IMG/VR virus record: IMGVR_UViG_2740892441_000001
DNA length: 64,000 bases
DNA from: a virus
Taxonomy: Duplodnaviria > Heunggongvirae > Uroviricota > Caudoviricetes
Direction: 5' to 3' (one strand)
Numbering within the stretch: the stretch's first letter is position 1; the number at the start of each line of letters is the position of its first letter. The translations under genes and the position numbers were made by a program. A model generated the notes under the pieces. That model was not told the origin of the DNA and did no database searches. It was given only the letters and a program-made list of their open reading frames with translations. Of the stretch, positions 4,743 through 55,278 are shown one piece after another.

Positions 4743-4838
4743 AGATCCCTCTAAAACACACAGAGCGCGTCCATGCGCTCTAAAACAACTTGTTTACTGC
4801 ATCTGCTAACCAACTTGTTTTCTGGTGTGTCTAATTAG

Positions 4839-4936
4839 GTCTGGGCATGTCTTACTAAGCCTGCTTCCGTATATATTTAATAAGTTACTTATTATTTATA
4901 TATACGGAAGCAGGTCTTTAAATAACGTCCCAGACC
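4839..4936. repeat. Long near-perfect palindrome (CCTGCTTCCGTATATAT ... ATATATACGGAAGCAGG) with outer GGTCTGGG/CCCAGACC arms
   Basis: Read directly; lies between stop of 4939-5205 gene and the terS promoter region; a second copy of the same arm sequence is at ~35979-36037. Confidence 0.7.
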
Positions 4937-4938
4937 GA

Positions 4939-5205
4939 TTACATCACCAGTAACTTCGCTTTGGCTCGACCTAAAGTGGTTAACCCAAGAGTCCGGCGGT
5001 GATAGCGATTGTCACTGCGTTGGCGCGTATGCCCTTTCTCCACCAGCCCCTTTTTTATCAGAGCGCGAATTGAGAACTGGATACTTTGCTTTGTTGTCTT
5101 GTACGGCAAAACTTCAAGCAATTCGTCCAGATCAAGTAGATGACCTCGCTCATAACCGAGATTGAGCGTTTTGATGATGTCCTTTTGTTTGTCGGTTAAC
5201 GTCAT
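4939..5205 (-). CDS. Small putative DNA-binding protein (winged-helix-like)
   Basis: 88 aa, basic C-terminus; first gene downstream of the 5215-8112 operon. Confidence 0.45.
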   Translation of the reverse strand: MTLTDKQKDIIKTLNLGYERGHLLDLDELLEVLPYKTTKQSIQFSIRALIKKGLVEKGHTRQRSDNRYHRRTLGLTTLGRAKAKLLVM

Positions 5206-5214
5206 GGCAAATCC

Positions 5215-9754: not shown

Positions 9755-9756
9755 TT

Positions 9757-10035
9757 ATGAGCGAAAAGAAAACAACTTATTGTCAGGTAGCATTGACTGA
9801 TAAGGCCAATGACAAACTGGGAAAATTTCAAATGAAACTAAAAGAAAAAAACATCAAAATGTCCAAGGCTGAAGTTATCAATACCATTCTGGAGACGATG
9901 ACGATGGCTGAATTTGACAAGGTTTCATCTGCCGTTGGCGTCTCTGCTAAGGCTCGTGAAAAAATCATGCGCATCTATGAGAACTCTAATATGACAAAGG
10001 AAGACCTAGAACAAATTCTAAGCAAACTGCCATAA
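9757..10035 (+). CDS. Hypothetical small protein, coupled to helicase
   Basis: 92 aa ORF starting 2 nt after helicase stop. Confidence 0.5.
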   Translation: MSEKKTTYCQVALTDKANDKLGKFQMKLKEKNIKMSKAEVINTILETMTMAEFDKVSSAVGVSAKAREKIMRIYENSNMTKEDLEQILSKLP

Positions 10036-10177
10036 CATTTCACATTCCCTCCATCCGCCAATTCCAAGATGTGCTTACTTGTAAAAGGAGCACATCAATT
10101 GATGTGGCAGAGAATGAATTTAATCAAGACAAACATTGAATGATTAATAGACTACGATAGTGTCCAACAGGGCATTC

Positions 10178-10200
10178 TCATGTGACATTTGTCACATTTT
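10178..10200 (+). terminator. Rho-independent terminator-like hairpin (CATGTGACA..TGTCACATTTTT)
   Basis: Perfect inverted repeat followed by T-run, downstream of 9757-10035. Confidence 0.5.
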
Positions 10201-10287
10201 TAACCGCATAAGTCTCCGGCTGAAAAAAGTTCTTGATTGGCTGAATGATATTTGTAGGCTTATCAATGTTTAGAGCCGGAGGTGTGA

Positions 10288-10830
10288 ATGGGTGTACTTG
10301 ACATTGATAGTAATTACTTAAGTGCAAGGCGAATAAAGGAATGTGTTCATATCTATTGTAAATCAAAGCAGTCTTGTTTAGAAAAGCAGGCGTACCTAAC
10401 ATCTTCTCAAAAAGGAGAGCACAAACTCATCAAATATAAACTAAAGGCTTCGCGCAAAGATCGTTATGAGCACTATATATATGTAAAGGATATTGAAGGC
10501 ACCAAGACAAATTGCGGTATTATCTTTTATCCCTATGATATATCAAGACTGTTCTCCATTATGAAATCCTGTGTCGGCGTAGCTCCAGGTAAATTAGAGT
10601 TGCATTCAAACTTATACGATTACCCAAATGCTCAAAAACAGATAAACGATAGCACTTCGCCCTATGGATTTTCGTTTCTCTTTAAGAATCATCTCGCATT
10701 GAAAGATTTCATCGAAAAATACAATGAAGGAATAATATCAGGCGAATTAAATTTCAACAAAATCTGCGGAGATATAAAAAGGGACGACCTCTTAATAGAT
10801 ATTTACAATAGAATCCAAGTTAACGTGTAA
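10288..10830 (+). CDS. Hypothetical protein (low-GC accessory gene)
   Basis: 180 aa ORF, AT-rich codon usage distinct from neighbours. Confidence 0.5.
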   Translation: MGVLDIDSNYLSARRIKECVHIYCKSKQSCLEKQAYLTSSQKGEHKLIKYKLKASRKDRYEHYIYVKDIEGTKTNCGIIFYPYDISRLFSIMKSCVGVAPGKLELHSNLYDYPNAQKQINDSTSPYGFSFLFKNHLALKDFIEKYNEGIISGELNFNKICGDIKRDDLLIDIYNRIQVNV

Positions 10831-10857
10831 CCATCCATTAATCATAGCCAGACAAAT

Positions 10858-11277
10858 ATGAAAGTAACAAACCTAATTATTCTGACACTAGCCACATCAC
10901 TAATTGGGTGTTCATCTTCATCTATATCTGTTTCAAAGGCAAAGTATGCGCCTCAAAGCAGAATATTTAAATATCAAACACCACATGAGTCTAGTCTAAC
11001 AATAGTTAGAGACAAAGGGCTGGTTGGTTCTGGATGTAACGCTTCCATATTCATCAATGGAGAAACGGCAGCAAAATTGGAACCTGGTGAAAAAGCAACT
11101 TTCTATCTTAATGAAGGAGATTGGATCGTTGGGACATCAATTGAAAGTTCAGGTCTTTGCGCATTTAACCCCTCTAGGATGGAGCGAGAAATAAAACTAA
11201 AGCAAGGCGACGCGAAAACATATCGGGTTTTCACTACCTGGGATGGTACAATGGATATATTGCCAACCACTTTATAA
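10858..11277 (+). CDS. Putative lipoprotein
   Basis: N-terminal signal peptide MKVTNLIILTLATSLIGCSSS with lipobox LIGC. Confidence 0.6.
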   Translation: MKVTNLIILTLATSLIGCSSSSISVSKAKYAPQSRIFKYQTPHESSLTIVRDKGLVGSGCNASIFINGETAAKLEPGEKATFYLNEGDWIVGTSIESSGLCAFNPSRMEREIKLKQGDAKTYRVFTTWDGTMDILPTTL

Positions 11278-11806
11278 TGATATGACGACGAAAGACATCA
11301 CCTACGGTGTGCCAGCAGAAGTCTGGCCTCGAGATTACACTAACGTTGAAAAACTACTGATGTTCTGGCGCAGAGAACAAATTCCTGTAAGGGCCACTCT
11401 AGAAGATGGCCAGGCGTTTTGCATGTACGTTTATGGCCTCATGCCATCTCGTAACAAAGTTGACCTTTGCCCAGCCCCTTTTGACAAAGAAAATCGTATA
11501 AGGCTCCCACTTGAACGCATTAGTACAATTGAATCAGGTGTGGTTGACAGTATCGCTCACGATTTCAAAGGTCGATTAACAGTTCACCCTGATTATGTCG
11601 ATAATCGGCCATCACGCCGCGATTTTTTTGCTATTTGCAACCAAGCCTATAAAGCAAACAAATCTATAAGGGTGTACATGGCGGATGGCCGTGAAATTGA
11701 GGGGGTGTCAGCAGGCGCAGATGCTTGTCAGGTTACACTACGTGTCGAGAACGGTAGAAAAATAGTTATTTTGTTCGATTGGGTTGAACGAATTTTGCCT
11801 TTTTGA
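11243..11806 (+). CDS. Hypothetical protein
   Basis: 187 aa ORF; true start may be the internal Met at ~11281. Confidence 0.45.
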   Translation: MVQWIYCQPLYNDMTTKDITYGVPAEVWPRDYTNVEKLLMFWRREQIPVRATLEDGQAFCMYVYGLMPSRNKVDLCPAPFDKENRIRLPLERISTIESGVVDSIAHDFKGRLTVHPDYVDNRPSRRDFFAICNQAYKANKSIRVYMADGREIEGVSAGADACQVTLRVENGRKIVILFDWVERILPF

Positions 11807-11809
11807 GTT

Positions 11810-12118
11810 ATGAAATCGATATTGTTACCACCATTATTTTTACTTTGCTCAGTTGCAGCAAATGCAATGGACTATAAGCCTGTCATTCAGTCGCTGATGA
11901 ATGACGTGTGCTCAACGTCTCAGAATGTATCAGTTTGCATGTATCAATTTTCGGCAGCCGTAAAAGCAGGAAAAGCGATAGGTGAGAATGTGGAACTGTG
12001 TAAGAAAGTGGCAAATGAAGAACGAGCAATGTTGGATTGCGAATCTAGCGAGTCATCGGCACAGTTCGTTGATGCGCTATTTGACACCAATCGTAAGGCT
12101 GTAGAGTCTGTCCAATAA
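11810..12118 (+). CDS. Small secreted protein
   Basis: Signal peptide MKSILLPPLFLLCSVAANA; 102 aa. Confidence 0.55.
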   Translation: MKSILLPPLFLLCSVAANAMDYKPVIQSLMNDVCSTSQNVSVCMYQFSAAVKAGKAIGENVELCKKVANEERAMLDCESSESSAQFVDALFDTNRKAVESVQ

Positions 12119-12337
12119 ATCTATAAGGTTAATAACCGGCTAAGTCCGGTTATTATTTTTCACATCACTTCTTTATATCTATAAATCAAACAACCTAAAT
12201 ATATAAGGTCGAAAGCCGGAATCGATTATTTATTTAGGGAACACCTTCGACGATCTCGCTTTTATTTCTAGGACTTTCATCCCTGCAAAAAAATTTAAAA
12301 AAACACTTGCAATCTTTTTTCGCGTATCGATAATTGA

Positions 12338-12399
12338 ACTCGTCGAAAGCGAAGATGCTAACGACAATAAATTTTAAATTTACATAAGGAAAAATTATC
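12338..12399 (+). promoter_or_regulatory. Sigma70-like promoter (TTGCAA - 17 nt - GATAAT) for 12400-13050
   Basis: Hexamers read directly upstream of RBS AAGGAAAAA. Confidence 0.5.
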
Positions 12400-13050
12400 A
12401 TGGCTAACATTATCATTTCTAAAAAATCCATCATTGAAGCTGCTTCCATTGTATCCGACGAGCTGCGCGAAAAAGCAGATCTGGCAACTCAAACATATAA
12501 CGAACATTATAAAAATGGTACGCACACTAAAGCAGACAAAGCAAATATGCAAGCTGCGACCACTAAACTTGCTTACTTCATCAACAACGTTGTAAACGCT
12601 GTTGAAGACGAAAAATTATGCTCTGTTTTCTACTATGCGATTAAAGCAAGCAAACAAGCGCCAGAAGTATTTTTCCGTGATGCAATGACTAATAGTTATT
12701 CACTGGAAAAACTGGTTTATCTGGTTAAATCTATTAAAGCTGGTAAATGCGTTTATTCCGTCGCTGATATGTCAGGATCTCGTGTATTCGCTTTAATCGA
12801 TATGATTAACGACGAGATCGACACGTTCACCAATGGCGCTGTTTTCGATTTAATGAATGAAGCTAAAAAAGCGTGTGAGATTAAATTGGACGCTGGCTAT
12901 ACTCAAGCCAACCAGTTGATCAATCTTTGCGAACGTCTCGGACTTGTTGAAAAAGTCAAAGGAGCTGGGAGCGCAAAAGCTGGTACTCAGCAATATCGCT
13001 TTATCAAGAATGATTTCTACAATTATCTAGCTGATGCTTTCAAAGCGTAA
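12400..13050 (+). CDS. Hypothetical protein
   Basis: 216 aa ORF with good RBS and own promoter; hairpin GCGCCCACTATGGGCGC at 13064-13080 downstream. Confidence 0.6.
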   Translation: MANIIISKKSIIEAASIVSDELREKADLATQTYNEHYKNGTHTKADKANMQAATTKLAYFINNVVNAVEDEKLCSVFYYAIKASKQAPEVFFRDAMTNSYSLEKLVYLVKSIKAGKCVYSVADMSGSRVFALIDMINDEIDTFTNGAVFDLMNEAKKACEIKLDAGYTQANQLINLCERLGLVEKVKGAGSAKAGTQQYRFIKNDFYNYLADAFKA

Positions 13051-13097
13051 TTAATGGAATCAAGCGCCCACTATGGGCGCTTTAAAGGAGCTTTAAA

Positions 13098-13301
13098 ATG
13101 GTCAGCTATGACAAGATCCGCGCGGAATATCGCGCAAAGTATCGCGCTTACAAACTGGAATTAATCGATGATTTGATCGCGCAACGCGACCAATTAAATT
13201 TTACGTTTTCTGATTTGCTTAACAGCAAGCGAGATTGCAAGCGCAAACGTGAATATTTACGTTTAAGCGCATTAATCGGAAAACTTCAAAATTCTATTTA
13301 A
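13098..13301 (+). CDS. Hypothetical small protein
   Basis: 67 aa, RBS AAAGGAG upstream. Confidence 0.5.
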   Translation: MVSYDKIRAEYRAKYRAYKLELIDDLIAQRDQLNFTFSDLLNSKRDCKRKREYLRLSALIGKLQNSI

Positions 13302-13321
13302 TTTTTTTAAGGAGCTTAATC

Positions 13322-13549
13322 ATGTTTGTTCTTATCGCTGGCGTTAACGTCCACAATGAATATTGTGTTAATGATATTGCTGGGATCGCTGGTTACGCTG
13401 GATCTGTTGAGCTTATAGATGAAACGACGCGCAAAATTGACTTATTGAGCGACCAGGAGCGAAAAAAAGCAGACGTGAACGACGCTGATATATTTTTAAT
13501 GTTAAAAGCGTTTGTAGAAATGGGATTTGAAATCAGTTTACATAAATAA
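13322..13549 (+). CDS. Hypothetical small protein
   Basis: 75 aa, RBS AAGGAG upstream. Confidence 0.5.
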   Translation: MFVLIAGVNVHNEYCVNDIAGIAGYAGSVELIDETTRKIDLLSDQERKKADVNDADIFLMLKAFVEMGFEISLHK

Positions 13550-13553
13550 AATC

Positions 13554-13578
13554 GAGCGCCCACTATGGGCGCTTTTTT
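13554..13578 (+). terminator. Rho-independent terminator (GAGCGCCCACTATGGGCGC + TTTTTT)
   Basis: GC-rich hairpin followed by T6; same stem as hairpin at 13064-13080. Confidence 0.8.
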
Positions 13579-13601
13579 CGTTTCCAATACTCCCACCATA
13601 A

Positions 13602-13628
13602 CGCGCCATCATTGGCGCGTTTTTTATT
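13602..13628 (+). terminator. Second tandem rho-independent terminator (CGCGCCATCATTGGCGCG + TTTTTTATT)
   Basis: Hairpin plus T-run read directly. Confidence 0.75.
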
Positions 13629-14029
13629 GTCTTTAACTCACTCCAACAACATAAAAATAAGCGCCAAAATAACGCCATAGACGCGATTTTATATCCTCGC
13701 CAGTACATACCCATTACTTAACACATTAACGCGCTTAAAACGCGTTATATTGCGCTATAGAGTATGGTTAATCGTTGGCTTTTAGTCTTGCTTTATGATC
13801 CGCGTTTATTTGTCGGCGCGGATCGGCATTTTGTTTTGTTCCGTATCCGCTCGCGTATTATGTGCGCGTGATTTTTCACATAATCACACCACTTAATCAC
13901 GTATGTGATTATGCTACGAAAGAAATCTGGATGTCTCAGGCGACGAAAGTCATCATAATTTTCCCCGCTCACCTGTCCGACAACCGCTGGTTGGATTCAA
14001 CCAGCTTCCCGATGTTTTTTCTATATAAA

Positions 14030-14160
14030 GGCGAATGCAGCCGTTTCCCGAAAAAATCCTGGCCGTTTCCCGTCGGCTCATGAATGCGTTCCTCGCCGTT
14101 TCTGAAAATTTCCCTGCGGCAGCTGGTGGCTATAGAGAAAGGGCCGTTTCTGGCCCTCTT
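14030..14160. repeat. Array of about 4 direct repeats of (G)CCGTTTCC(C/T)GAAAA-type units
   Basis: GCCGTTTCCCGAAAA, GGCCGTTTCCCGTC, GCCGTTTCTGAAAA, GGCCGTTTCTGGCC read directly; same repeat family recurs at 17640-17800. Confidence 0.65.
14131..14156 (-). terminator. Terminator-like hairpin (GGGCC..GGCCC + T-rich) after gene 14166-14648
   Basis: Minus-strand hairpin followed by TTTCTCTAT. Confidence 0.45.
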
Positions 14161-14165
14161 CTCAG

Positions 14166-14648
14166 TTACACGCCATCAAGGATGTGGATGCGGTTGCTTG
14201 CGTATACATTCAGCATAAAGTTAGCGCAAAACAGTTTCCATGTATCAACGCCAGCGGTATACGTAATGTTTTTGCATTTAATCGCATTGTTGGCGATCCG
14301 CATCCCCTGCGATACTGCTTCATCGTCGGAAAATTTGAACGACGATTGAGTTTTAATCCAGACAGAAATCTGCGTAGCGAACTCAATCAGCTTGGACTGG
14401 CAGAATCGCCCGGAGCGCACCGGAAAGACGAACGTTCCGAATCCAGAATTTACCACATACGCTTTCTCAAATACCCGCGAGTAACGACGATTGCCAATGA
14501 TGTCGCGTGCAATAATGCATTTTTCTTGTGCTGACAGTTCTACCGTCTCATTGTCGCGCCATGCACCAAGTACTCGTTTTTCAATGTCAGAGAACGTTAC
14601 AGCGATATTGCCATGTGCGGGTGCGTTTACAGTAGCGATAAAATTCAT
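14166..14648 (-). CDS. Hypothetical protein
   Basis: 160 aa; preceded by conserved promoter/leader element and RBS AAGGAAA. Confidence 0.55.
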   Translation of the reverse strand: MNFIATVNAPAHGNIAVTFSDIEKRVLGAWRDNETVELSAQEKCIIARDIIGNRRYSRVFEKAYVVNSGFGTFVFPVRSGRFCQSKLIEFATQISVWIKTQSSFKFSDDEAVSQGMRIANNAIKCKNITYTAGVDTWKLFCANFMLNVYASNRIHILDGV

Positions 14649-14725
14649 GATTATTTCCTTATCGTAAATAACAAATTGTTTTCTTGTTGGTGTTAATTAT
14701 CGTTGTACGAATAAGGCGTCAAAGT
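14649..14725 (-). promoter_or_regulatory. Conserved promoter/leader element (TTGACG ... GATAAT ... AACACCAACAAGAAAACAATTTGTT)
   Basis: -35/-10-like hexamers plus the conserved leader motif shared by more than 10 genes in the window. Confidence 0.5.
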
Positions 14726-14823
14726 GGAAAGTTGCGGTAGCCGGACGGGAACAGGTGGGTTTTTCGGTTGCCTGGAGGTAAGAGGTTGGTGTTTTTAGCC
14801 TGCGGGAAACAGGATGGTCATTT

Positions 14824-14847
14824 AAGGCCACCAATGCTGGTGGCCTT
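14824..14847. terminator. Conserved hairpin AAGGCCACCAATGCTGGTGGCCTT (terminator or processing site)
   Basis: Perfect stem-loop; near-identical copy at 15294-15320 and related copy at 16945-16963. Confidence 0.4.
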
Positions 14848-14852
14848 AGTCT

Positions 14853-15134
14853 TTAGTGGAGCAGACCGATGTCGATGGTATCCCCTGAATCCCCCACACG
14901 GATCATCAGCATGGCGAAGGCGTTTAGTGGATAACTGGCGTGCCATTCAGGGAAGCGGTCATCTCGCATGAAGTCGGCAATGTCGTAAACGCAGCCCTCA
15001 AAGTGGAAGAATCGCGTGCTTACCTGCTCGTCATATTCCACATGATCCATTTCTTGCTGTTCTGTTTCCGGCAAGTCCAGCCATGATTCAAGGAATACAT
15101 TTTGTGCTTTAGGGGTAATGGTGAAATCAGTCAT
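14853..15134 (-). CDS. Hypothetical small acidic protein
   Basis: Start reassigned to internal Met (MTDFTITPK...) because the conserved promoter element lies inside the longer ORF; RBS GAGGATA. Confidence 0.5.
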   Translation of the reverse strand: MTDFTITPKAQNVFLESWLDLPETEQQEMDHVEYDEQVSTRFFHFEGCVYDIADFMRDDRFPEWHASYPLNAFAMLMIRVGDSGDTIDIGLLH

Positions 15135-15469
15135 GAGCATATCCTCACTGCGTAAACATATTGTTTTCTTGTTGGTGTAATTATCGCAGTGTAGATAAGG
15201 CATAAAAGAAGTTAATACAGGCTGAATACACAAGAAAGGTTCTGGAAGTTGATAGCCAGGTTTCAAACTAACCTTCGGTTATTAAAAGTCATTTAAGACC
15301 ACCAATGCTGGTGGCCTTAATAATTATCGCCCGATTACGCTAAGGATCTTTTCCTCAACTGATTTGTTGTTGCGACTAAACTGCCTTGCGTATCTGATGA
15401 CAGAAGAGGCGTTTTGCTTTCTGACCATCTCGGCTCTTTCCTTCAGGCGTTTCTTGAAATCGCCCATAT

Positions 15470-15862
15470 TTACCACCAGGCGCAGAACGTCAGTCTGTTA
15501 TTGTGAAAGTCGTAATTATTAATCAGCTCTTCTACAAGTGCTTTCAACTCCCCCACGTCACGCCAGTAATCTTCGTCATAATCCATGCTGCCAAAGTAAA
15601 AACCTCCAGTCGGCTCGAACTCATCCTGAGTAGGCAGAAGGGCTTCGCAATTACTCTCGTTGAGACGAATCAGAGTAGCCTTTAGAGCGCAAAGATCATT
15701 CTTTGTAATTTCTAAAAATTTAAAACTATCAACTTTGCCTACGTTCCGATTCACCCACCCAACAAGCGCATTAAACTTATAAAAATAGCCTACTTCCTTT
15801 CTGGCTGCTTCGTTATTCAGATCGTTTTTTGGCTGCGTCTCGATATAGATATCAAGTCCCAT
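15470..15862 (-). CDS. Hypothetical protein
   Basis: 130 aa; RBS AAGGAAACC; upstream GGCAGAAAACAAATT element. Confidence 0.5.
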   Translation of the reverse strand: MGLDIYIETQPKNDLNNEAARKEVGYFYKFNALVGWVNRNVGKVDSFKFLEITKNDLCALKATLIRLNESNCEALLPTQDEFEPTGGFYFGSMDYDEDYWRDVGELKALVEELINNYDFHNNRLTFCAWW

Positions 15863-15986
15863 GATGGTTTCCTTATTAAGTATTAAGTTGCTTCAGTGAA
15901 AGCATTTTCACAAATCAGATAAGGCAGAAAACAAATTATTATCGGGCATAAGAAAATGGCGCGGTTTACGCGCCATTTAAAGAGGA

Positions 15987-16382
15987 TTAAGCGAATACGC
16001 TTTCAGGGATTAAGGTATCAGCAGGAATGCCGGATGTAATACGCAGACCGTACTGGCCAATCCAGGTGGTGCTGGTGTTCAGGCTGGAGGCGAATACGGA
16101 ATTAACCATATTCATCATGGTTTCAAACACCTCTTCATCAACCTGGCGGAAGTAGTTCTCGATTTTCAGCAGCAGCGGGTCAGTTGCATCGAGAATGGAC
16201 TGGTATTGAGTCGCGTACTCGCCGCCGGAGGCATCACCTTTACGCACGATCGTACTGGCCTGTACTTCGGCACCAGTTTCGGTGTTGTACGTAACAACGG
16301 TGATTTTTGCCACATTCTTACCTTCGGCGGTTTCAGAGGCATAGTAAACATCAACTGTCAGTTTTTCGCGTTTAACGGTCAT
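15987..16382 (-). CDS. Hypothetical protein
   Basis: Start set at MTVKREK; RBS GGAGAGTGAA; upstream palindrome GTAAGTACATACTTAC. Confidence 0.5.
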   Translation of the reverse strand: MTVKREKLTVDVYYASETAEGKNVAKITVVTYNTETGAEVQASTIVRKGDASGGEYATQYQSILDATDPLLLKIENYFRQVDEEVFETMMNMVNSVFASSLNTSTTWIGQYGLRITSGIPADTLIPESVFA

Positions 16383-16508
16383 TTCACTCTCCGTAGTGTA
16401 TTGGTTATTTTTATATTCTATGATCGTAAGTATGTACTTACAAAACAAAAAAGCCCCGTAAGGATGGCGGGGCTGTCGTACTGTCGACTAATTACCACTT
16501 GCACATTA

Positions 16509-16820
16509 TCAGGCTATTGCCATCACTGATGCTCTCTGAATCTCTTGCTGGGCCACGCGGTTAACTTCCATCAAAGCCAGTTCGAGCTGATGTTCCGGCC
16601 ACATTCTTTGAAACGCCATCCAGCCTTTTCCACGCTGGCGGCGAACATTCATTACATAACGAGTAAAGGTGTTTTTATCGAAAGACACCGCTGTTTCACG
16701 GAACAGACGAATAGAGGTTCCATTGGCAACGATGTCCAGCAAAGTTAATTGAGCAACCAGCGCAGGCTTCTCTTTTCTCTTCTGGTCTTTGTCCAGACCA
16801 AGAACCAATGATTTTTTCAT
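16509..16820 (-). CDS. Hypothetical protein
   Basis: Start set at MKKSLVLG (RBS GGAG) downstream of conserved promoter element at 16833-16865. Confidence 0.5.
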   Translation of the reverse strand: MKKSLVLGLDKDQKRKEKPALVAQLTLLDIVANGTSIRLFRETAVSFDKNTFTRYVMNVRRQRGKGWMAFQRMWPEHQLELALMEVNRVAQQEIQRASVMAIA

Positions 16821-16973
16821 CACAACTCCGTAAACAACTTGTTTTCTCAATGGCGTAAATAATACCAGTAAGAAAACGGCTACAAAGCATATTGATCAGG
16901 TGCATGAGCGATATGCAGGTTCTTCCCTGCGGCTATAGAGAAATTAAGCCAGCAATGCTGGCTTTGGTTGGGG

Positions 16974-17303
16974 TTACTCGAATACTTCAAGAAACTCCTG
17001 AACGTCCCAATGCTGGACGAGGTGAAGATAGACCTTAGAAATCACGTCATTTTCGCTATCGCATGTGAAGTAGTACTTCTGGCTGCGGTTGTATGTGTCC
17101 ACACAAAATTCGCTCATATCCATAAAGTCAGCATCTTCACCCATGTCGCAAATCATCAAAGCAGGTGCGTCATCACGAGTCATCAGCTCAAGCACCCACC
17201 GCGAATTGATCAGAGTGGAAGACCAACCTTCTAACTCATAAAACTGATCAAACTCTTTTTGAGTTAATTTCTTGATTTGGTTGATGTCGATATTTGCAAA
17301 CAT
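16974..17303 (-). CDS. Hypothetical acidic protein
   Basis: 109 aa; conserved promoter element at 17318-17350 immediately upstream. Confidence 0.5.
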   Translation of the reverse strand: MFANIDINQIKKLTQKEFDQFYELEGWSSTLINSRWVLELMTRDDAPALMICDMGEDADFMDMSEFCVDTYNRSQKYYFTCDSENDVISKVYLHLVQHWDVQEFLEVFE

Positions 17304-17639
17304 AAATCAATCCTTAAACAACATGTTTTCTTATTGGTGTTATTATCGCAATAACGCATAGGCGAAAAAGGATTTTATTCCGGTGAATGTGGTTTTGGCA
17401 GTGAGTTTTCAGGTTCAGTACCGAGTACACTTTTTACATTATTCTGATTTAGTAGCCGAAGGTGGCTGGTGGGCAGAATAATCATCTCCCCGAAAACCTA
17501 CTGAAATCGATTGTGACCCGCTGACTGTCTGGCACAATTACGCTGTAGTTGGGCATTCAGAGGGAATCCAGCGGTAAGTAAGTTCGCCTGCACGTGAGCG
17601 CCTCTCTTCTTCCCGCACATTACAGGTGGATAGCCGCAA

Positions 17640-17800
17640 CTCTCCCTCTCGCTATACCGGTACGCCGCCGTTCCTGAACCGGCATCGAGCCTTTTCCCGA
17701 AATCCACACAGGCAACTCGACCGTTTCCCTGAAAACCTCCAGCCGTTCCCCGAAGGCAACCCAGCCGTTTCTGTAGCGGGATGCAGCCTTTTCCCTGTAT
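17640..17800. repeat. Array of about 6 direct repeats of the CCGTT(T/C)CC(C/T)GAA family
   Basis: CGCCGTTCCTGAAC, AGCCTTTTCCCGAAA, GACCGTTTCCCTGAAAA, AGCCGTTCCCCGAAGG, AGCCGTTTCTGTAG, AGCCTTTTCCCTGTAT at ~22-30 bp spacing; contains DnaA-box-like AAATCCACACA. Confidence 0.65.
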
Positions 17801-17949
17801 GGACCGAAGGCTGACCGTAGGGGTGTTACGGGGGATAAAATCAGTAGTTGAATAAATACGAAAAAGGAGGCGACACCCCTCCTTCCCTCCCCACTTATAC
17901 ATACCTGGCTTCTTCGCTATGCATGTTGTGTTTTCTTCGTGTTTTATCT

Positions 17950-18500
17950 GTTTCAACCTCTCTATAGGCGTTAATGCTCACTCCTTCCAGAACGTTCTAT
18001 ACGGCAACTATTTCTGTTGGTGAATTGGGTGTGTTGTTTTCTCTGTCGGTGTATGTGGTTTCGTTCGTTTTGCGGTGGTTCTTCTATAGGGTGTTCTCGT
18101 CGTTTTGGTGATTGTTCTTCTCCGTCTATGGAGTAATGGCAGGTGGGCGATTCCTTTCGTTATTGTGTTTGAGTTGTTTGTCTGGAGTGCGTGAAGGGCT
18201 TTTGTAGTTATTCGTGTATTGGGTAATGGCGTTTCCCGTGATTGTTCTGTTTCGTGTCTTTTGGGATTGAAGAATCCTTGCGGTAACAGGCTTCGTTGGG
18301 GTTTCAGTGATTCTGGTGTTTCTTCGCTGTTTGGGTAATGGCGTGTCGTGGGTATCGCGCGTATGAATGTTTTCGGATTGCCTGTGAAAGTTAGGTTGGT
18401 TGTCCGGTAGCCTGGGAAGAAGAGGTGGGTCTTTTCGGTAGCCTGCCATAAAGAGGTTGGTTGTTTTTGGGAATGGCATATGCGTTATTTAGTTGTTTTG
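17950..18500. repeat. Strongly GT-skewed non-coding region built from degenerate tandem repeats
   Basis: Plus strand almost entirely G/T; repeated TTGGGTAATGGCGT units (~18135, ~18220, ~18335) and GGTAGCCTG units; overlapping ORFs have implausible T/P/Q/N-rich composition. Confidence 0.6.
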
Positions 18501-18866
18501 TTATGCCTGAAAATAAGTTGTTTATATGGTTATGTAACGCAACGGGAACGATTTTGAGCGTGTGTTTTTGTTGGTAGTGTGTTGGGTCGTCTGTGGTGAA
18601 AATTGGACGCTGTGGCGCTGTCTGCTGCGTAGGATTGCGGGTATAAGAAGTAATGTGTGAAAACGTCAATTTTTTAGACCAAATCGGGTGAAAGCGTTGA
18701 CGTTTCGTTGATCTGTTATTCAGTTGTTTTCTTGTTTGTATAAACAACTATAACCTATTGATATTTAAGGGTGTGATTGCAGGTATGGAAGGGGAGTAGT
18801 GGCGATCAACGGATTCTTATAGAAAAGAATCAAATTGTGACCGCCATTATCAATAAGTTGCAACCG

Positions 18867-19436
18867 TTAGTTGTTCAGATAAACATTTGGAACACGGACG
18901 TAGAAGTTCCTGTCACCGGTAAGTTCCAGAGTAATGTTAATGTCATTACCATTGTCTAGTGTAGCCGTTGCTCTATAGAACTTATCCGTCACCTTGTCCT
19001 CTATTGTCACCTTCATACATTTTGGTGCAGTCGAACCGTTATTCTCTTTCAGAATAGTTGTCACGAGAGGGCAGGCTGCTTCTTCAAGAGCAACCTCGTC
19101 CTTGTGTGGGATGCCGATGAAGATAATCCAAGCCAGCGACGCAACGATTATGATAAATGGCACTCTGCTGCCTTTTGTAATAGTCGCGCGCTTCCAGAGA
19201 TAGACAGGCAGGAGGAATACCCCCCATAGAATTGAAGGTGGTTCACAGCCAGACTCCGATAGAGCCATTCTGTCAGCTACTAACAAACCGATGGTAGTTA
19301 CACCCCCAATTATAATAGCGTAATTGGTATACTCTTCCGGCAATACTCCAAAGAAGAAAGGCATGAACGCTAGAATCCACGCATAAATGTTATTCAGAGG
19401 TTTTGTTTGTTGGTTCTGGGTTTCCATCACATCCAT
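18867..19436 (-). CDS. Putative membrane protein
   Basis: 189 aa with several hydrophobic helices (e.g. IYAWILAFMPFFFGVL, FIIIVASLAWIIFIGI). Confidence 0.5.
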   Translation of the reverse strand: MDVMETQNQQTKPLNNIYAWILAFMPFFFGVLPEEYTNYAIIIGGVTTIGLLVADRMALSESGCEPPSILWGVFLLPVYLWKRATITKGSRVPFIIIVASLAWIIFIGIPHKDEVALEEAACPLVTTILKENNGSTAPKCMKVTIEDKVTDKFYRATATLDNGNDINITLELTGDRNFYVRVPNVYLNN

Positions 19437-19588
19437 TCCATCACATAAAAATCGCTTTTATATATTATCAATTTTCTCACTTGTATAACCTAAATACGCA
19501 TCCGTTTATCAATCCACCTTCCACAAACATCAGCTTTGGCTATGAAAAATGACAATCTCAAAGTGAAACCATTATCATAGGATAACGA

Positions 19589-19774
19589 TTAGATGAGATG
19601 GTCTAATTCATCATCTATCATCGCTTTAACACTTGAGTCATTAACCCCGTATTGATTTATGAGCCGTTTCAGCTCCGGTGAAAACTGAAGGTAGATATCG
19701 TGGGCGTTTTTCACTGTAGGTTCAACGCCACGCATTTCAAGCGCCTTTAGTAGATATGAGTCTTCTTTAAGCAT
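19589..19774 (-). CDS. Hypothetical small protein
   Basis: 61 aa ORF in operon with 19811-20119. Confidence 0.4.
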   Translation of the reverse strand: MLKEDSYLLKALEMRGVEPTVKNAHDIYLQFSPELKRLINQYGVNDSSVKAMIDDELDHLI

Positions 19775-20271: not shown

Positions 20272-22305
20272 TTACTTAACCTGGTGGCCAGGTTTAGCAC
20301 CAGCATCCGGGCTTAACAGGAAGATGTCTTTCCCGCCGGGGCCAGCAGCCATCACCATGCCTTCGGAGATACCGAAACGCATTTTACGCGGAGCCAGGTT
20401 AGCCACCATAATGGTGTGACGGCCAATCAGTGCCTGTGGGTCTGGATAAGCGGAACGGATGCCTGAGAAGACATTGCGTTTTTCACCGCCGAGATCCAGC
20501 GTCAGGCGCAGCAGTTTGTCAGAACCTTCAACAAAGTCTGCGTTTTCGATCAGCGCCACGCGCAGGTCAACTTTGGCAAAGTCGTCAAAGGTGATGGTTT
20601 CCTGAATCGGGTCGTCTGCCAGCGGGCCAGTAACTGGCGCGGCAGTAGCTTTCACTTCTTCTTTAGACGCTTCCACCAATGCTTCCACCTGTTTCATGTC
20701 GATACGGTTATACAGTGCTTTGAACGGATTCACTTTATGGCCCAGCAGCGGTTGCTGGATACCATCCCAGGTCAGTTCTGTATTCAGGAATGCTTCTGCA
20801 CGTTCAGTCAGTTTCGGCAGTACCGGCTTCAGGTACGTCATCAGCACGCGGAACAGGTTAATGCCCATAGAGCAAATCGCCTGCAGATCGGCATCGCGTC
20901 CTTCCTGCTTCGCCACCACCCACGGAGCCTGTTCATCGACATAGCGGTTAGCCAGGTCAGCCAATGCCATGATTTCACGGATAGCTTTACCAAATTCGCG
21001 GCTTTCCCATGCTTCGCCAATCACTTCAGCGGCATCAGTAAAGGTTTTGTACAGTTGCGAGTCAGCCAGTTCGCTTGCCAGCACGCCGTCAAAACGCTTG
21101 TTGATAAAGCCTGCATTACGGGAGGCCAGGTTAACCACTTTGTTCACGATATCGGCATTCACGCGCTGAACGAAATCCTCCAGGTTGAGATCGATATCAT
21201 CAATGCGCGAAGAGAGTTTCGCAGTGTAGTAGTAACGCAGGCTGTCGGCGTCAAAATGATTCATCCAGGTGCTGGCTTTAATAAAGGTGCCGCGAGACTT
21301 GGACATCTTCGCGCCGTTCACCGTCACATAGCCGTGAACAAACAGGTTGGTCGGCTTGCGGAAGTTGCTGCCTTCCAGCATGGCAGGCCAGAACAGGCTG
21401 TGGAAGTAAACGATATCTTTACCGATGAAGTGGTACAGCTCGGCGGTGGAGTCTTTCTTCCAGTATTCATCGAAGCTGGTAGTGTCGCCGCGCTTGTCGC
21501 ACAGATTCTTGAAGGAACCCATGTAGCCAATCGGTGCGTCCAGCCAGACGTAGAAATATTTACCCGGCGCGTTCGGAATTTCAAAACCGAAGTAAGGTGC
21601 GTCGCGGGAGATATCCCACTGTTGCAGACCAGATTCAAACCACTCCTGCATTTTGTTTGCCACCTGCTCCTGCAACGCACCGCTGCGGGTCCATGCCTGC
21701 AACATTTCGCTGAAAGAGGGCAGATCAAAGAAGAAGTGTTCAGAATCACGCATTACCGGCGTAGCGCCAGAAACTACCGATTTCGGCTCAATCAGTTCAG
21801 TCGGGCTGTAGGTCGCGCCGCAAACTTCACAGTTATCGCCGTATTGATCTGGCGCTTTACATTTCGGACAGGTGCCTTTCACAAAACGATCCGGCAGGAA
21901 CATGCCTTTTTCCGGGTCGTACAACTGAGAGATAGTGCGGTTTTTAATAAAACCGTTCTCTTTCAGGCGAGTATAGATAAGCTCAGACAGCTGGCGGTTC
22001 TCTTCGCTGTGCGTCGAGTGATAGTTGTCATAGCTGATGTTAAAGCCTGCGAAATCAGTCTGGTGTTCCTGGCTCATTTCGCCAATCATCTGTTCCGGTG
22101 TGATACCAAGCTGCTGTGCTTTCAGCATGATCGGCGTACCGTGGGCATCGTCGGCGCAGATGAAGTTGACCTCGTGGCCGCGCATTCGCTGGTAACGGAC
22201 CCAGACATCAGCCTGGATGTGCTCCAGCATATGGCCGAGGTGGATTGAGCCGTTAGCGTACGGCAGCGCGCACGTCACCAGAATTTTCTTCGCGACTTGG
22301 GTCAT
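20272..22305 (-). CDS. metG: Methionine--tRNA ligase (methionyl-tRNA synthetase), enterobacterial type
   Basis: 677 aa from [26 protein letters not shown]... with HIGH (HLGH) and KMSKS motifs; recalled as near-identical to E. coli MetG; start reassigned to 22305. Confidence 0.97.
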
Positions 22306-22462
22306 AGTAGGCATTACTTCTTTGTAGTGAAAAGGGGCTTGATAGTAACAAAATGGCCTTATGTCTGCCATGTGATAACAGCATTTCTCATAAATGATTA
22401 AATGTCGTAGCTGGAGTACACTACAAGGCGACAATTGCGCAAATTAAAATAAAGGAGACGGG

Positions 22463-23563
22463 ATGAGCGAGTCCAAATCGCCGGATGCCCTGAGAGCAAT
22501 GGTAGCCGGTACGCTGGCTAATTTTCAGCACCCAACCCTGAAGCACAACCTGACTACGCTTAAAGCGTTACACCATGTTGCGTTGATGGATGACACACTG
22601 CATGTCGAACTAATCATGCCTTTCGTGTGGAATAAGCCTTTTGAAGACCTGAAAGAGCAATGTAGTGGTGATCTGCTCCGTATCACTGGCGCAAAGGCTA
22701 TCGACTGGAAGCTGTCGTACAACATTGCCACGCTTAAGCGCGTCAAAAACCAACCAGGCATTAATGGCGTTAAGAACATCATCGCCGTCAGCTCAGGCAA
22801 GGGCGGTGTAGGCAAATCGTCCACAGCAGTAAACTTGGCACTGGCGTTGGCTGCTGAAGGTGCGAAAGTTGGTATTTTGGATGCCGATATCTACGGTCCA
22901 TCAATTCCAACCATGCTGGGTGCGGAAAACCAACGTCCAACCTCACCGGACGGTACTCACATGGCACCTATCATGTCTCATGGCCTGGCAACCAACTCTA
23001 TTGGTTATCTGGTCACCGACGACAATGCAATGGTGTGGCGTGGACCGATGGCCAGCAAGGCGTTAATGCAGATGTTGCAGGAAACTCTATGGCCTGATCT
23101 GGACTATCTCGTTCTCGATATGCCGCCGGGCACTGGTGATATTCAATTGACGCTGGCGCAGAACATTCCTGTAACTGGTGCTGTTGTGGTAACTACGCCG
23201 CAAGATATCGCGCTGATCGATGCGAAGAAAGGCATTGTGATGTTCGAAAAAGTCGAAGTGCCGGTACTGGGTATCGTCGAAAACATGAGTGTGCATATTT
23301 GCAGTAACTGCGGTCATCACGAGCCAATTTTTGGCACCGGTGGCGCACAGAAGCTGGCCGAGAAATACAACACGCAGTTGTTAGGCCAAATGCCACTTCA
23401 TATCTCTCTTCGTGAAGATCTGGATAACGGAACACCAACCGTTATTAGTCGTCCAGATAGCGAATTTACGGCTATTTATCGTGACCTCGCAGATCGCGTT
23501 GCTGCCCAAATGTATTGGCAAGGTGAAGTAATACCTGGCGAAATCGCATTCCGCGCAGTGTGA
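22463..23563 (+). CDS. apbC: Iron-sulfur cluster carrier protein ApbC/Mrp (P-loop ATPase)
   Basis: 366 aa; deviant Walker A SGKGGVGKSS and CxxC motif (CSNCGH); divergent from metG with enterobacterial-type intergenic region. Confidence 0.95.
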   Translation: MSESKSPDALRAMVAGTLANFQHPTLKHNLTTLKALHHVALMDDTLHVELIMPFVWNKPFEDLKEQCSGDLLRITGAKAIDWKLSYNIATLKRVKNQPGINGVKNIIAVSSGKGGVGKSSTAVNLALALAAEGAKVGILDADIYGPSIPTMLGAENQRPTSPDGTHMAPIMSHGLATNSIGYLVTDDNAMVWRGPMASKALMQMLQETLWPDLDYLVLDMPPGTGDIQLTLAQNIPVTGAVVVTTPQDIALIDAKKGIVMFEKVEVPVLGIVENMSVHICSNCGHHEPIFGTGGAQKLAEKYNTQLLGQMPLHISLREDLDNGTPTVISRPDSEFTAIYRDLADRVAAQMYWQGEVIPGEIAFRAV

Positions 23564-54222: not shown

Positions 54223-55278
54223 ATGAGCGAAAACGGCAATAAAAACATAGCGATCGTTGAAGCATTTTCAGAAACAGATAAAAAGACAGGCGAAGTTGTT
54301 ACGTTGGTTCCTAACACTAATAACACTGTTCAGCCTGTTGCTTTGATGCGTCTGGGCCTCTTCGTTCCGACGCTGAAATCGACATCCAGAGGAAGAAAGG
54401 GGCAAATGGTCTCTATGGATGCCTCTGCTGAACTCAAACAGCTGTCTCTGGCAAAAGCCGAAGGGTACGAAGACATAAGGATCTCTGGCCTTCGGCTTGA
54501 TATGGATAACGACTTTAAAACGTGGGTGGGAATAATCCACGCGTTTGCCAAACACAAGGTCGTTGGCGATACTGTCACGTTGCCGTTCGTTGAGTTTGTA
54601 AGGCTGTGTGGCATTCCGACCGCCAGGTCATCAGCGAAGTTACGCAAACGCCTGGACAGTTCGCTAAGCCGTATTGCCACAAATACCATCTCGTTCCGTA
54701 GCAAAGGCTCTGATGAGTTTTACGTAACGCATCTTGTGCAAACGGCAAAATATAGTGTCAAGCACGATACGGTCGAACTGAAAGCAGATCCCAAGATTTT
54801 CGAACTCTACCAGTTCGACAAAAAGGTTCTTCTGCAACTCCGGGCTATAAACGAACTCTCAAGAAAAGAATCCGCTCAGGCGCTTTATACTTTTATTGAA
54901 AGTTTGCCGCCTGATCCGGCACCAATATCACTAGCCCGTTTACGCGCCAGACTTAATCTGACAAGTCGCACTATTACTCAGAATGCGACGGTAAGAAAGG
55001 CTATGGAACAGCTGCGAGAGATAGGATATCTCGATTACACGGAAGTTAAGCGCGGAAACTCGGTCTACTTCGTCATCCACTATAGGCGGCCAAAGTTACG
55101 CCAGGCACAAATATCAACAAAAATCGATAATGATGAGACGGAATATAGCCTCCCAGATGAGAATCAAGATGACATTATCGACGTTGTGCCTGACGAAAAA
55201 GAAGGCAAAATGGTCATGTTGAGTAAAGAAGAACTGGCGCTTCTCGAAGAGTTGCGCAAGGCAAAGACTCGCAAATAG
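54223..55278 (+). CDS. Putative iteron-binding replication initiator (RepA-like)
   Basis: 351 aa gene flanked upstream and downstream by iteron arrays; assignment rests on context, not a recognised sequence match. Confidence 0.65.

Follow-up and report, generated by a model that had tools for sequence, protein, structure and literature searches.

A conserved, strand-skewed non-coding region beside phased iterons in SSU5-type phage-plasmids: a possible lytic origin

Results

Location and conservation of the gene-free region

The window analysed here, a stretch of 64,000 nucleotides (IMG/VR record IMGVR_UViG_2740892441_000001), belongs to a phage-plasmid of the SSU5/pLF82(Cyrano) type from E. 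coli. It contains a gene-free gap of 1.56 kb (17304-18866), which is flanked by genes on the minus strand. PGAP annotated no gene between 16974..17303 and 18867..19436 in near-identical plasmids. A first-pass annotation had delimited a non-coding region of 17350-18780 here. A non-coding unit is indeed present, but that interval was drawn too small; the real unit comprises 17304-18866, and strand skew is found only in its right 45%. The features of the unit, together with a related array outside the interval first reported, are listed in Table 1.

The gap is kept in a family of phage-plasmids from gut bacteria, across Escherichia, Salmonella, Klebsiella, Enterobacter, Citrobacter and Buttiauxella, and it is at least as well conserved as its neighbours. 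Insertions and deletions among family members were mostly not multiples of three, many of them being 1 nt long, and the variation across family members showed no 3-base periodicity. Together with the blank PGAP annotation, this confirmed the non-coding status of the region, and the conservation gave no sign of a coding gene. Protein coding was thus rejected on the basis of the indel spectrum, the absent periodicity and the inconsistent annotation (see Discussion).

The block was found in 838 PLSDB plasmids and in 240 of 5,426 complete E. coli genomes. A scan of species-representative genomes gave matches in Kluyvera, Buttiauxella and one likely contaminant contig only. Large IncFIB/HI1B plasmids of Klebsiella that match 18405-18735 turned out to carry an IS-truncated fragment of a Klebsiella phage-plasmid (98% identity) and were uninformative.

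Conservation remains at 0.78-0.86 up to approximately 18860 and falls to 0.39-0.47 beyond this position. To the right of the boundary block lies variable cargo, so that the right-hand neighbours differ from plasmid to plasmid. In most members the upstream cargo genes are oriented toward the region; in the Klebsiella members the adjacent cargo faces away and the block is still present. The Chi site near the left end is kept in most close relatives and has the opposite orientation in L063, a divergent lineage. It is probably incidental.

Table 1. Features of the gene-free region and of the related distal array (window coordinates)
Feature	Position	Strand	Details
Distal array of the same iteron	14040..14104	+	GCCGTTTCCC at 14040 and 14062, GCCGTTTCTG at 14095; outside the reported interval
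Promoter and operator region of the downstream gene 16974..17303	17316..17401	-	-10 GATAAT 17347..17342; alternative CTGCCA-18-TAAAAT 17401..17372
Palindrome-like AAACAACATGTTTT	17316-17329		within the promoter/operator region of the downstream gene
Chi site GCTGGTGG	17465..17472	+	
Six iterons CC[GT]TT[TC]C[CT]	17668..17794	+	starts 17668, 17690, 17721, 17743, 17765, 17787
Hairpin and U tract, intrinsic-terminator-like	17861..17887	-	where the skewed body ends; purine tract forms the 5' arm; from terminator scan
Skewed body	17981..18640	-	G/T-rich on the plus strand; minus sense C/A-rich, G/U-poor, untranslated
Dispersed GTAATGGC boxes	18133, 18223, 18335	+	flanks partly similar; spacing 90 and 112
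GGGAATGGC box	18469	+	dispersed-box set spans 18133..18477
Degenerate copy AAAATAAGTTGTTTA of palindrome AAACAA-N-TTGTTT	18510..18524	.	
Candidate leftward promoter	18641..18676	-	A tract 18676..18670, -35 TTGACG 18669..18664, 17-nt spacer, -10-like TTATAC 18646..18641
Two CGTTGAY boxes	18695..18712	+	11 bp apart; read from sequence
Variant of the recurrent promoter/operator element	18715..18750	-	AAGAAAACAAC box 18733..18723; without the GATAAT hexamer of other copies
Right boundary block of the conserved unit	18785..18866	-	covered by an alignment of 26 distinct sequences
Inverted repeat in the right boundary block	18801-18808 / 18838-18845		GGCGATCA / TGACCGCC
Two CGTTGAY boxes	within 18785..18866	-	inside the right boundary block

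Composition of the skewed body

The G+T content of the plus strand was 0.70-0.77 in every 100-nt segment between 18000 and 18600. For segments of 300 nt, the mean over the whole window was 0.499 (sd 0.040) and the maximum, 0.757, fell in the skewed body, which lies 6 sd above the mean. The strong G/T skew noticed earlier is therefore real, but 'almost pure G/T' overstates it, as A+C still make up 23-30%. An equivalent skewed block in other phage-plasmids, suggested as a check, was found in each of 31 representatives: their skew was 0.63-0.74 at pairwise identities of 59-79%. Tandem Repeats Finder detected no tandem array in the region and autocorrelation revealed no significant lag in five lineages, so that the claim of periodic tandem repeats of ~100 bp had to be dropped. 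For the same reason, namely the lack of head-to-tail repeats of constant period in both analyses, a tandem-repeat array or a sopC-like centromere was rejected.

In L063 the alignment of its body with that of the window reached 0.63, compared with 0.60 for shuffled sequence. Nevertheless, the L063 body has a length of ~680 nt and a composition of A.39, C.29, G.19 and T.14, and this lineage keeps the candidate promoter, the length and composition of the body, the iterons and the distal array. As the sequence has drifted to the level of shuffles while the composition was kept, it is the composition of the body that is conserved and not its sequence.

Short boxes are dispersed within the body. Read on the minus strand, their sequence is GCCATTACC/GCCATTCCC, which looks like an inverted version of the iteron GCCKTTYCC. 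Their columns were invariant in a 9-sequence alignment, and SSU5-type members have up to 6 copies. Further to the right, SSU5-type members carry the perfect palindrome GAAAACAACTTGTTTAG where the window has a degenerate copy. The motif AAACAA-N-TTGTTT occurs in 8 exact copies in the window (0.02 expected).

The minus strand has a 760-nt run in which C exceeds G by at least 10%. No run of this kind on either strand of the window is longer, and the next one measures 320 nt. Over the putative minus-sense transcript the C/G ratio is 1.8. With a fold z-score of -0.7 this RNA would be no more structured than shuffled sequences. Neither the body nor the iterons showed conserved RNA structure on either strand except for the terminal hairpin, and a search of Rfam 15 with 16500-19500 on both strands gave no match at E ≤ 1. 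Hence the putative transcript resembles a rut region in being untranslated and unstructured and in having, for 70-80 nt or more, clearly more C than G. YC dimers are the preferred contacts of Rho. These were not enriched, their frequency being 11.9 per 100 nt in the putative transcript and 11.1 in the window.

Promoter-like elements, terminal hairpin and expression in lysogens

A promoter-like element at 18722-18750, oriented to transcribe the region on the minus strand, had been proposed by the first-pass annotation. It is a variant of a recurrent element that lies upstream of at least nine genes (13 occurrences of the motif against 0.8 expected, and 14 against 2.1 in a second count), but it lacks a -10 hexamer, and 18669..18641 is the better candidate. 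The -35 sequence of the latter matches the consensus at five of six positions. A consensus scan did not call this candidate because its -10 has no final T; the alternative -10, TATACC with an 18-nt spacer, matches at four of six positions and likewise has no final T. All 31 representatives share the arrangement TTGA(C/T)G, exactly 17 variable nucleotides, TTATA(C/T), and L063 has TTGACA-17-TTATAC. The two adjacent CGTTGAY boxes lie where conservation within the unit is highest (0.91-0.97) and are invariant in the 31 representatives. The first of them pairs as an inverted repeat with GAAAACGTCAA at 18659-18669.

At the other end of the body, a G+C-rich hairpin followed by a U tract, as is typical of intrinsic terminators, lies on the strand that would be transcribed. 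It has 10 pairs, three of them with compensatory change, contains G-U pairs, and was predicted for the minus-sense RNA alone. Most lineages retain the hairpin; the U tract behind it is well formed in the E. coli, Klebsiella and Buttiauxella types, whereas SSU5-type members have a poor one.

In published RNA-seq data of LF82 lysogens the region is nearly devoid of reads, although the genes on either side are both expressed. The log2 values of CYRAN_103 and CYRAN_104, the two ORFs annotated over the region in phage Cyrano, were 2.3-4.7, at or near the detection floor, and those of the neighbours reached 9.2 (CYRAN_102) and 7.8 (CYRAN_105); the paper is silent on strand-specific counting. This low signal fits a repressed promoter as well as an RNA that is rapidly terminated and degraded. 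It speaks against the abundant large non-coding RNA that had been envisaged for the region, at least in lysogens. By contrast, the idea of minus-strand transcription as such gains from the hexamer pair with its fixed 17-nt spacing (31 of 31), from the hairpin predicted in one sense only and from the longest run of C over G.

Phased iterons and a second array

The E. coli, SSU5 and Salmonella types share one and the same spacing of the six proximal iterons (22, 31, 22, 22 and 22 bp); in Klebsiella and Buttiauxella there are three copies at 22-bp intervals. Iteron origins are marked by at least three to four direct repeats in helical phase, and this is what the array displays. In the window a second array of the same iteron is located 3.6 kb to the left. 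The distance between both arrays was 3.1-4.1 kb in 11 of 14 family loci, the remaining three having too little or no matching flank. The proximal repeats were also considered as the origin iterons of RepA/RepFIB. This was rejected, as the RepA iterons have a different sequence (CCnCTnTrGAGAGC, 21-bp period, 53682-53780) and are found beside repA (54223..55278).

Among the neighbouring proteins no iteron-binding initiator was found; all of them belong to families without known function in Pfam, PHROGs and NCBIfam, and two AlphaFold models gave no Rep-like match. Reading of the sequence and of the alignment by eye revealed no conserved DnaA box. The sole A+T-rich patch between the iterons and the body spans ~33 bp (17834-17866, 76% A+T), and the cumulative GC skew has no turning point at the locus. 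The phage encodes a helicase, a primase, a Pol III alpha subunit, RNase H and UvsX/Y/W-like proteins. Of the functions first suggested for the region, that of a candidate lytic origin gains support from the six phased iterons and the second array, which the first-pass annotation had not noticed. A search of the literature in full text yielded no account of the region or of the lytic origins or termini of SSU5-type elements.

Discussion

We tentatively favour the view, with somewhat less than even confidence, that the region, a unit of several parts acting in cis, is a transcription-gated iteron locus which is silent in the lysogen and probably serves as an origin in the lytic mode, the skewed body being a Rho-type attenuator and insulator. 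The candidate at 18669..18641 would act as a sigma-70-type promoter on the minus strand, set among conserved repeats that look like binding sites and kept off in the lysogen. Once it fires, RNA polymerase would move leftward through ~0.75 kb without a reading frame. The resulting RNA would be C/A-rich, G/U-poor and unfolded, the type of RNA on which Rho loads, and transcription would stop at the hairpin and U tract (17887..17861), ~65 bp ahead of the six iterons in their 22-bp phase. Given an unfolded C/A-rich RNA and a terminal hairpin, we propose that body and hairpin act together as attenuator and insulator; they would set whether transcription, from the local promoter or from upstream cargo, gets to the iterons. 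The iterons and the second array 3.6 kb away could provide a second replicon, most likely a lytic one, with its binding array, and transcription would activate or prime this replicon upon induction. This view has a gap in that 80-100 nt would be enough for a Rho site, and an attenuator leaves the 0.7-kb length and the conserved GCCATTAC boxes unaccounted for.

Several known systems share parts of this arrangement. Like the two-array origins or control loci of P4 (ori/crr), P1 (oriR/incA), F (ori2/incC) and SPP1 (oriL/oriR), the locus has direct repeats in helical phase (22 bp), arrays of one repeat that lie a few kb apart and bracket a block of genes, and inverted repeat-like boxes nearby. A further likeness is that it exists alongside the RepFIB-type plasmid replicon as a locus of its own. 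In contrast to these loci, no cognate Rep or alpha-like protein was found among its neighbours, and neither clear DnaA boxes nor a long A+T-rich unwinding element were seen. To our knowledge, a strand-skewed, putatively transcribed stretch of 0.7 kb beside the iterons has no counterpart in them.

The body itself can be compared with Rho-dependent terminators and attenuating leaders (lambda tR1 rutA/rutB, trp t', mgtA, corA). As in these, an untranslated, unstructured RNA with more C than G would follow just past a promoter or gene end, and the RNA signal is sharply lost. However, the region exceeds an ordinary rut region about tenfold in length and contains conserved short boxes, and its RNA would be A-rich without enrichment of YC dimers, whereas usual rut RNA is pyrimidine-rich.

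With transcription-activated or RNA-primed origins (lambda ori/pR, P1 oriL/P53, ColE1 RNA II, T4 oriF/oriG) the locus shares a promoter that seems to be off in the lysogen and faces the putative origin from a distance of several hundred base pairs. It likewise comes with a phage-encoded RNase H and with T4-like proteins for recombination and replication. The differences are that known R-loop primers contain G-rich segments while the RNA would be G-poor here, and that a terminator-like hairpin separates the RNA body from the iterons.

Finally, the motif AAACAA-N-TTGTTT recalls the scattered operators of P1 C1, as it is a short motif found beside many promoters throughout the genome, including both ends and the inside of the region. 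The C1 operator is asymmetric, in contrast to the palindrome seen here, which, instead of binding a repressor, may bind an activator or belong to a 5'-UTR.

The leading competing explanation is a pure transcriptional insulator, in which the boundary hairpin, a C-rich Rho-dependent terminator and the hairpin with U tract block cargo transcripts from the conserved small phage genes and the iterons are an unrelated regulatory array. We regard it as possible but unlikely. It agrees with the position of the region precisely where variable cargo gives way to conserved genes, with the prevailing orientation of the cargo toward it, with expression that drops over ~110 nt from 57 in CYRAN_102 to 5, the floor, in CYRAN_103, with a body whose composition and length are kept and whose sequence is not, and with the separate promoter of the downstream gene. 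Moreover, insertions of antibiotic resistance genes in SSU5-like phage-plasmids gather at one locus only (PMC9600943), which may be the one described here. A pure insulator would leave unexplained why a highly conserved promoter-like site fires into a 'terminator', why boxes are conserved within the body, and why there are 0.7 kb of it, phased iterons and a second array. It also does not fit Klebsiella, where the block persists beside cargo that points the other way.

A more novel reading is that the body is 'composition-coded', functioning through its keto/amino strand asymmetry and its length and not through its sequence. It could then be part of a new kind of phage origin, in which a G-poor primer or activator RNA together with an unfoldable displaced strand loads the phage replisome beside the iterons, or specify a long lytic RNA that titrates Rho or Hfq. 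We consider this idea, too, unlikely, and give it marginally less credit than the pure insulator.

In another scenario, the minus-sense RNA might remain paired with the G/T-rich template, as at origins of the ColE1 RNA II or T4 oriF/oriG kind, be processed by the phage RNase H and prime a leftward leading strand by the iterons, while the displaced C/A-rich strand serves for helicase loading. The order of promoter, ~0.75 kb of transcript and an end adjoining the iterons would suit such an R-loop origin, as would the RNase H, the UvsW-like helicase, the gp32-like SSB and the UvsX/UvsY-like proteins of the phage. Nearest-neighbour energies favour a minus-sense RNA:DNA hybrid over the duplex (6th-26th percentile, 17800-18400) and disfavour a plus-sense RNA hybrid (92nd-99th percentile, 17900-18300); the advantage is modest, however, and no outlier. 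Known R-loop origins depend on G-rich RNA, which a G-poor transcript does not provide. Furthermore, an intrinsic terminator would free the RNA, and an unfolded C-rich RNA draws Rho, which removes R-loops. An origin of this kind is therefore rather improbable.

Still less probable, in our opinion, is a long non-coding RNA of the lytic phase that acts in trans by its composition, for instance by titrating an RNA-binding host protein such as Rho or, by way of A-R-N repeats like those of CrcZ in Pseudomonas, Hfq. Promoter and terminator-like hairpin would bound a discrete RNA of ~770 nt, unfolded and A/C-rich, and conservation of composition rather than sequence is what such an RNA would show. Against it stand the missing expression in lysogens, the absence of an Rfam match and of conserved structure, and the tight physical link to the iterons and the cargo border, which it does not explain. 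We know of no composition-based RNA sponge for Rho or Hfq in enterobacterial phages.

A DNA-end element, either a pac/cos packaging site or a recombination hot spot made of Chi and G/T-rich DNA, is very improbable. RecA-type proteins prefer G/T-rich DNA, and Chi polarity in the window looked like a possible sign of a DNA end or of an origin: five Chi sites from 9521 to 17465 are all on the plus strand and the next three rightward to 39322 all on the minus strand. This marker was discarded, since the Chi orientation is mixed in the full Cyrano genome and the iteron-adjacent Chi is inverted in L063; besides, the G/T-rich block lies on that side of Chi where RecBCD would destroy it before recognising the site. 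Nothing spoke for the packaging site proposed at first, as no small-terminase gene adjoins the region and the terminase genes (4094-5982) are ~12 kb away. A real minus-strand protein-coding gene has a negligible chance: open frames of 117-152 aa exist and one record, phage Cyrano, annotates CYRAN_103 and CYRAN_104, but T-poor, G-poor sequence yields few chance stop codons, the frames vary among relatives with their frequent 1-nt indels and aperiodic variation, PGAP leaves the region blank, and the SSU5 and Klebsiella annotations are on other strands and at other positions.

SSU5-like phage-plasmids are common in clinical Enterobacteriaceae and carry resistance and other cargo. In the literature searched, nothing was found on how lytic replication starts in the SSU5 type or on how expression of cargo and of phage genes is kept apart, and the region is a concrete candidate for both. 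It is also a clear case of a bacterial non-coding element in which base composition, not sequence, is conserved. Should the iteron locus be the lytic origin, this would account for the switch from ~5 copies to runaway replication and would offer a handle for curing or tracking SSU5-like phage-plasmids.

Distribution and conservation of the gene-free region

The window is a phage-plasmid of the SSU5/pHCM2/pLF82 type. Its segment 17350-18780 matched 240 plasmids, and not a single chromosome, from complete E. coli genomes; PLSDB gave a total of 838 matching records. Identity to pLF82 (= phage Cyrano) is 97%, and matches of 66-75% identity were found in SSU5 and in plasmids of Salmonella, Enterobacter, Citrobacter, Klebsiella, Cronobacter and Buttiauxella. 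The NCBI pipeline annotation of a near-identical RefSeq plasmid leaves the gap between two minus-strand genes (16974..17303 and 18867..19436) empty; the Cyrano record places two hypothetical ORFs in it, CYRAN_103 and CYRAN_104. An alignment of 31 family representatives (<97% identity; plasmid and phage collections, IMG/VR) showed that conservation spans the entire gap (~17310-18860), often above that of the flanking genes, and that homology ends on the right at ~18860. On the left the region adjoins small conserved genes with no assigned function. The right-hand flank is variable cargo: metG/apbC in the window, and IS1, an autotransporter, GIY-YIG, or DUF262 with type I R-M in relatives. The window cargo (20272-23563, directly right of the region) comprises a full-length host-like metG (methionyl-tRNA synthetase) and apbC/mrp; the lysogen expresses apbC (CYRAN_99), among other genes. 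Klebsiella IncFIB/IncHI1B plasmids of 190-450 kb (L005, L006) contain a piece of an SSU5-like phage-plasmid of Klebsiella (98% identity) that starts midway through the skewed body, where an IS end cuts it on the left, and extends across the promoter block to DUF262 and type I R-M genes.

Features of the region and of the second iteron array (window positions)
Feature	Position	Strand or sense	Details
Boundary block	18866-18785	minus	inverted repeat and two CGTTGAY boxes
Recurrent-element variant	18750-18715	minus	box present, -10 absent
Promoter-like site	18669..18641	minus	A tract, TTGACG 18669..18664, 17-nt spacer, TTATAC 18646..18641
Hairpin and U tract	17887..17861	minus	from terminator scan
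Six iterons CC[GT]TT[TC]C[CT]	17668-17794	plus	spacing 22, 31, 22, 22, 22 bp
Chi site, then next gene's promoter		minus-sense order	left of iterons
Second iteron array	14040-14104	plus	in another gene-free stretch

The skewed body is non-coding and conserved in composition

The first-pass annotation had described this plus strand as almost pure G/T with ~100-bp tandem repeats. The skew is real and extreme, but 'almost pure' overstates a G+T content of 0.70-0.77 per 100-nt window (18000-18600); in 300-nt windows the window-wide mean is 0.499 (sd 0.040) and the maximum, 0.757, lies in the skewed body. Tandem Repeats Finder detected no array, and autocorrelation in five lineages gave no significant lag. 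What repeats there are occur as dispersed copies of GTAATGGC whose flanks are partly similar: the window has three, plus one GGGAATGGC; SSU5-type members have up to six dispersed box copies. Read on the minus strand, these boxes of the body (GCCATTACC/GCCATTCCC) resemble the iteron GCCKTTYCC in inverted orientation, and 8 of the 11 window matches to GCCDTTHCC fall in three clusters, namely the two iteron arrays and the body boxes. From sequence likeness, a relationship between body boxes and inverted iterons is suggestive only. GATC is scarce in 17300-18870, with only 2 sites per 1.57 kb vs 4.3 per kb window-wide, both within CGTTGATC boxes (18710 and 18804).

The proposed lack of coding function held. 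Most indels that separate lineages have lengths not divisible by three, and many are single-nucleotide; the variable columns lack 3-base periodicity, and the longest open frames differ in frame from member to member. In sequence this poor in T and G, long open frames arise by chance. In the minus sense the region has the longest C>G run of either window strand (760 nt vs 320 for the next). Folding of the minus-sense body does not exceed that of shuffled sequence (z = -0.7), and YC dimers are not enriched in it; the plus-sense body folds worse (z = +2.4).

Block G+T is 0.63-0.74 in all 31 representatives at pairwise identities of 59-79%. A divergent lineage (L063), identified from its homolog of a neighbouring protein (51% identity), has a matching layout in the syntenic gap: TTGACA-17 nt-TTATAC and a 680-nt body (A.39, C.29, G.19, T.14), followed by a segment rich in purines, a set of five GGGAAACGG repeats, the promoter of the next gene and a distal pair of repeats. 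The L063 body is 0.63 identical to the window body, against 0.60 for shuffled sequence (maximum 0.61); composition and length thus persist where sequence does not. Strand-specific composition that outlasts sequence suggests that one of the two strands is under constraint.

A conserved promoter-like site precedes the body

The most conserved stretch of the unit (0.91-0.97) holds two more CGTTGAY boxes and the promoter-like site, whose hexamers are exactly 17 nt apart in 31 of 31 representatives while the spacer sequence varies. Judged from the alignment, this invariant spacing is the evolutionary signature of a promoter; its -10 is imperfect and was missed by a consensus scan. The promoter-element variant proposed at 18722-18750 does carry the box of the recurrent element, but no -10 hexamer. 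That element lies upstream of at least nine genes and consists of the -10 GATAAT, CACCAAyAAGAAAACAA and the palindrome AAACAA-N-TTGTTT; its box occurs in 13-14 copies vs 1-2 expected. The 13-bp palindrome has 8 exact copies vs 0.02 expected (4783, 16832, 20124, 20175, 24111, 32834, 33563 and 57303) plus degenerate ones, and in the contexts checked it stands just 5′ of a gene start, following the -10 and box. It resembles a scattered operator serving a single regulator, like that of P1 C1, and would define a regulon of small genes.

Terminal hairpin and phased iterons

The hairpin, predicted in the minus sense only, is retained in most lineages, with compensatory change in 3 of 10 pairs and many G-U pairs; its U tract is weak in SSU5-type members. 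Iteron spacing is identical across genera, and no conserved RNA fold was found over the iterons. In 11 of 14 family loci a second array is conserved at a distance of 3.1-4.1 kb (the other three have too little or no matching flank), and six small genes lie between the two arrays. It is part of a gene-free stretch between convergent genes (13550-14165), conserved across the family, with two terminator-like hairpins, several palindromes, 3-4 iteron copies (14040, 14062, 14095) and Chi at 14122; this stretch could be a partner of the studied locus or the true origin. The RepFIB-type RepA iterons (53682-53780, beside repA at 54223..55278) were rejected as members, being of different sequence. Scans of neighbouring proteins (Pfam, PHROGs, NCBIfam; two AlphaFold models) identified no initiator for the iterons, and reading the alignment of the region revealed no DnaA box and no clear unwinding element.

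Chi (GCTGGTGG) is strongly over-represented: the 64-kb window has 15 copies (1.4 expected) and the Cyrano genome of 108 kb (loci L001, L014-L016) has 25, in mixed orientation overall. A 61-aa protein (minus strand, 19589..19774) has a weak, sub-threshold match to the T7 gp5.9 RecBCD-inhibitor family (E = 0.005, 17 bits, cut-off 24.5), notable only given the Chi richness.

Expression in lysogens

LF82 RNA-seq, re-analysed in a supplementary table of PMC9928086, covers 10 samples, some in vitro and others from macrophages. CYRAN_103 (~18391-18747) reached log2 2.3-4.3 (floor 2.32) and CYRAN_104 (~17498-17902) 2.6-4.7, the strandedness of these counts being unstated, whereas upstream CYRAN_102 reached up to 9.2 and downstream CYRAN_105 up to 7.8. 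Thus, the region is nearly silent in lysogens while its neighbours are on, and the downstream gene uses its own promoter.

Discussion

Given that a promoter and a minus-sense hairpin flank the body, a minus-sense RNA is the simplest candidate for the constrained strand. Rho uses untranslated, unfolded RNA with C>G, as at the rut sites of lambda tR1 and trp t′. Body and hairpin directly precede the phased iterons, and the cargo genes on the other side mostly point inward. This putative Rho-type RNA and its position between cargo and iterons lead us to propose, tentatively, that transcription gates the iteron locus and that the locus is most likely a second origin for the lytic mode. Several results weigh against this reading: the searches above turned up no initiator, DnaA box or clear unwinding element, YC dimers are not enriched, and both the length of the body and its conserved boxes go further than a terminator requires.

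A pure insulator, shielding the conserved small phage genes from cargo transcripts, is the next candidate, though a rather unlikely one; the 0.7-kb length and the conserved boxes exceed what a terminator needs. An origin primed by the RNA itself is less probable again, R-loop energetics being only mildly favourable. A trans-acting RNA, which the promoter and hairpin could delimit, is slightly more doubtful still; no conserved RNA structure was found in the skewed body. A DNA-end element is very improbable, and a protein-coding stretch, despite the Cyrano ORFs, even more so given the indel pattern.

Nothing in the literature searched describes this region, or where SSU5-type elements have their lytic origin or termini. 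Taken singly, the components (promoter, C-rich untranslated leader, hairpin, iterons) are familiar; to our knowledge, neither the combined layout nor a 0.7-kb composition-conserved stretch beside phased iterons has a counterpart. Under the gated-locus reading, the promoter would be repressed in the lysogen, since it is set among conserved operator-like repeats, and body and hairpin would keep transcription off the iterons. Upon induction, the promoter would supply transcription, or a primer, to the iterons, which may serve as a second origin in the lytic mode; this is favoured by the two arrays, their distinctness from the plasmid replicon, and the phage's own set of proteins (a helicase, a primase, Pol III alpha, an RNase H, and proteins like UvsX/Y/W).
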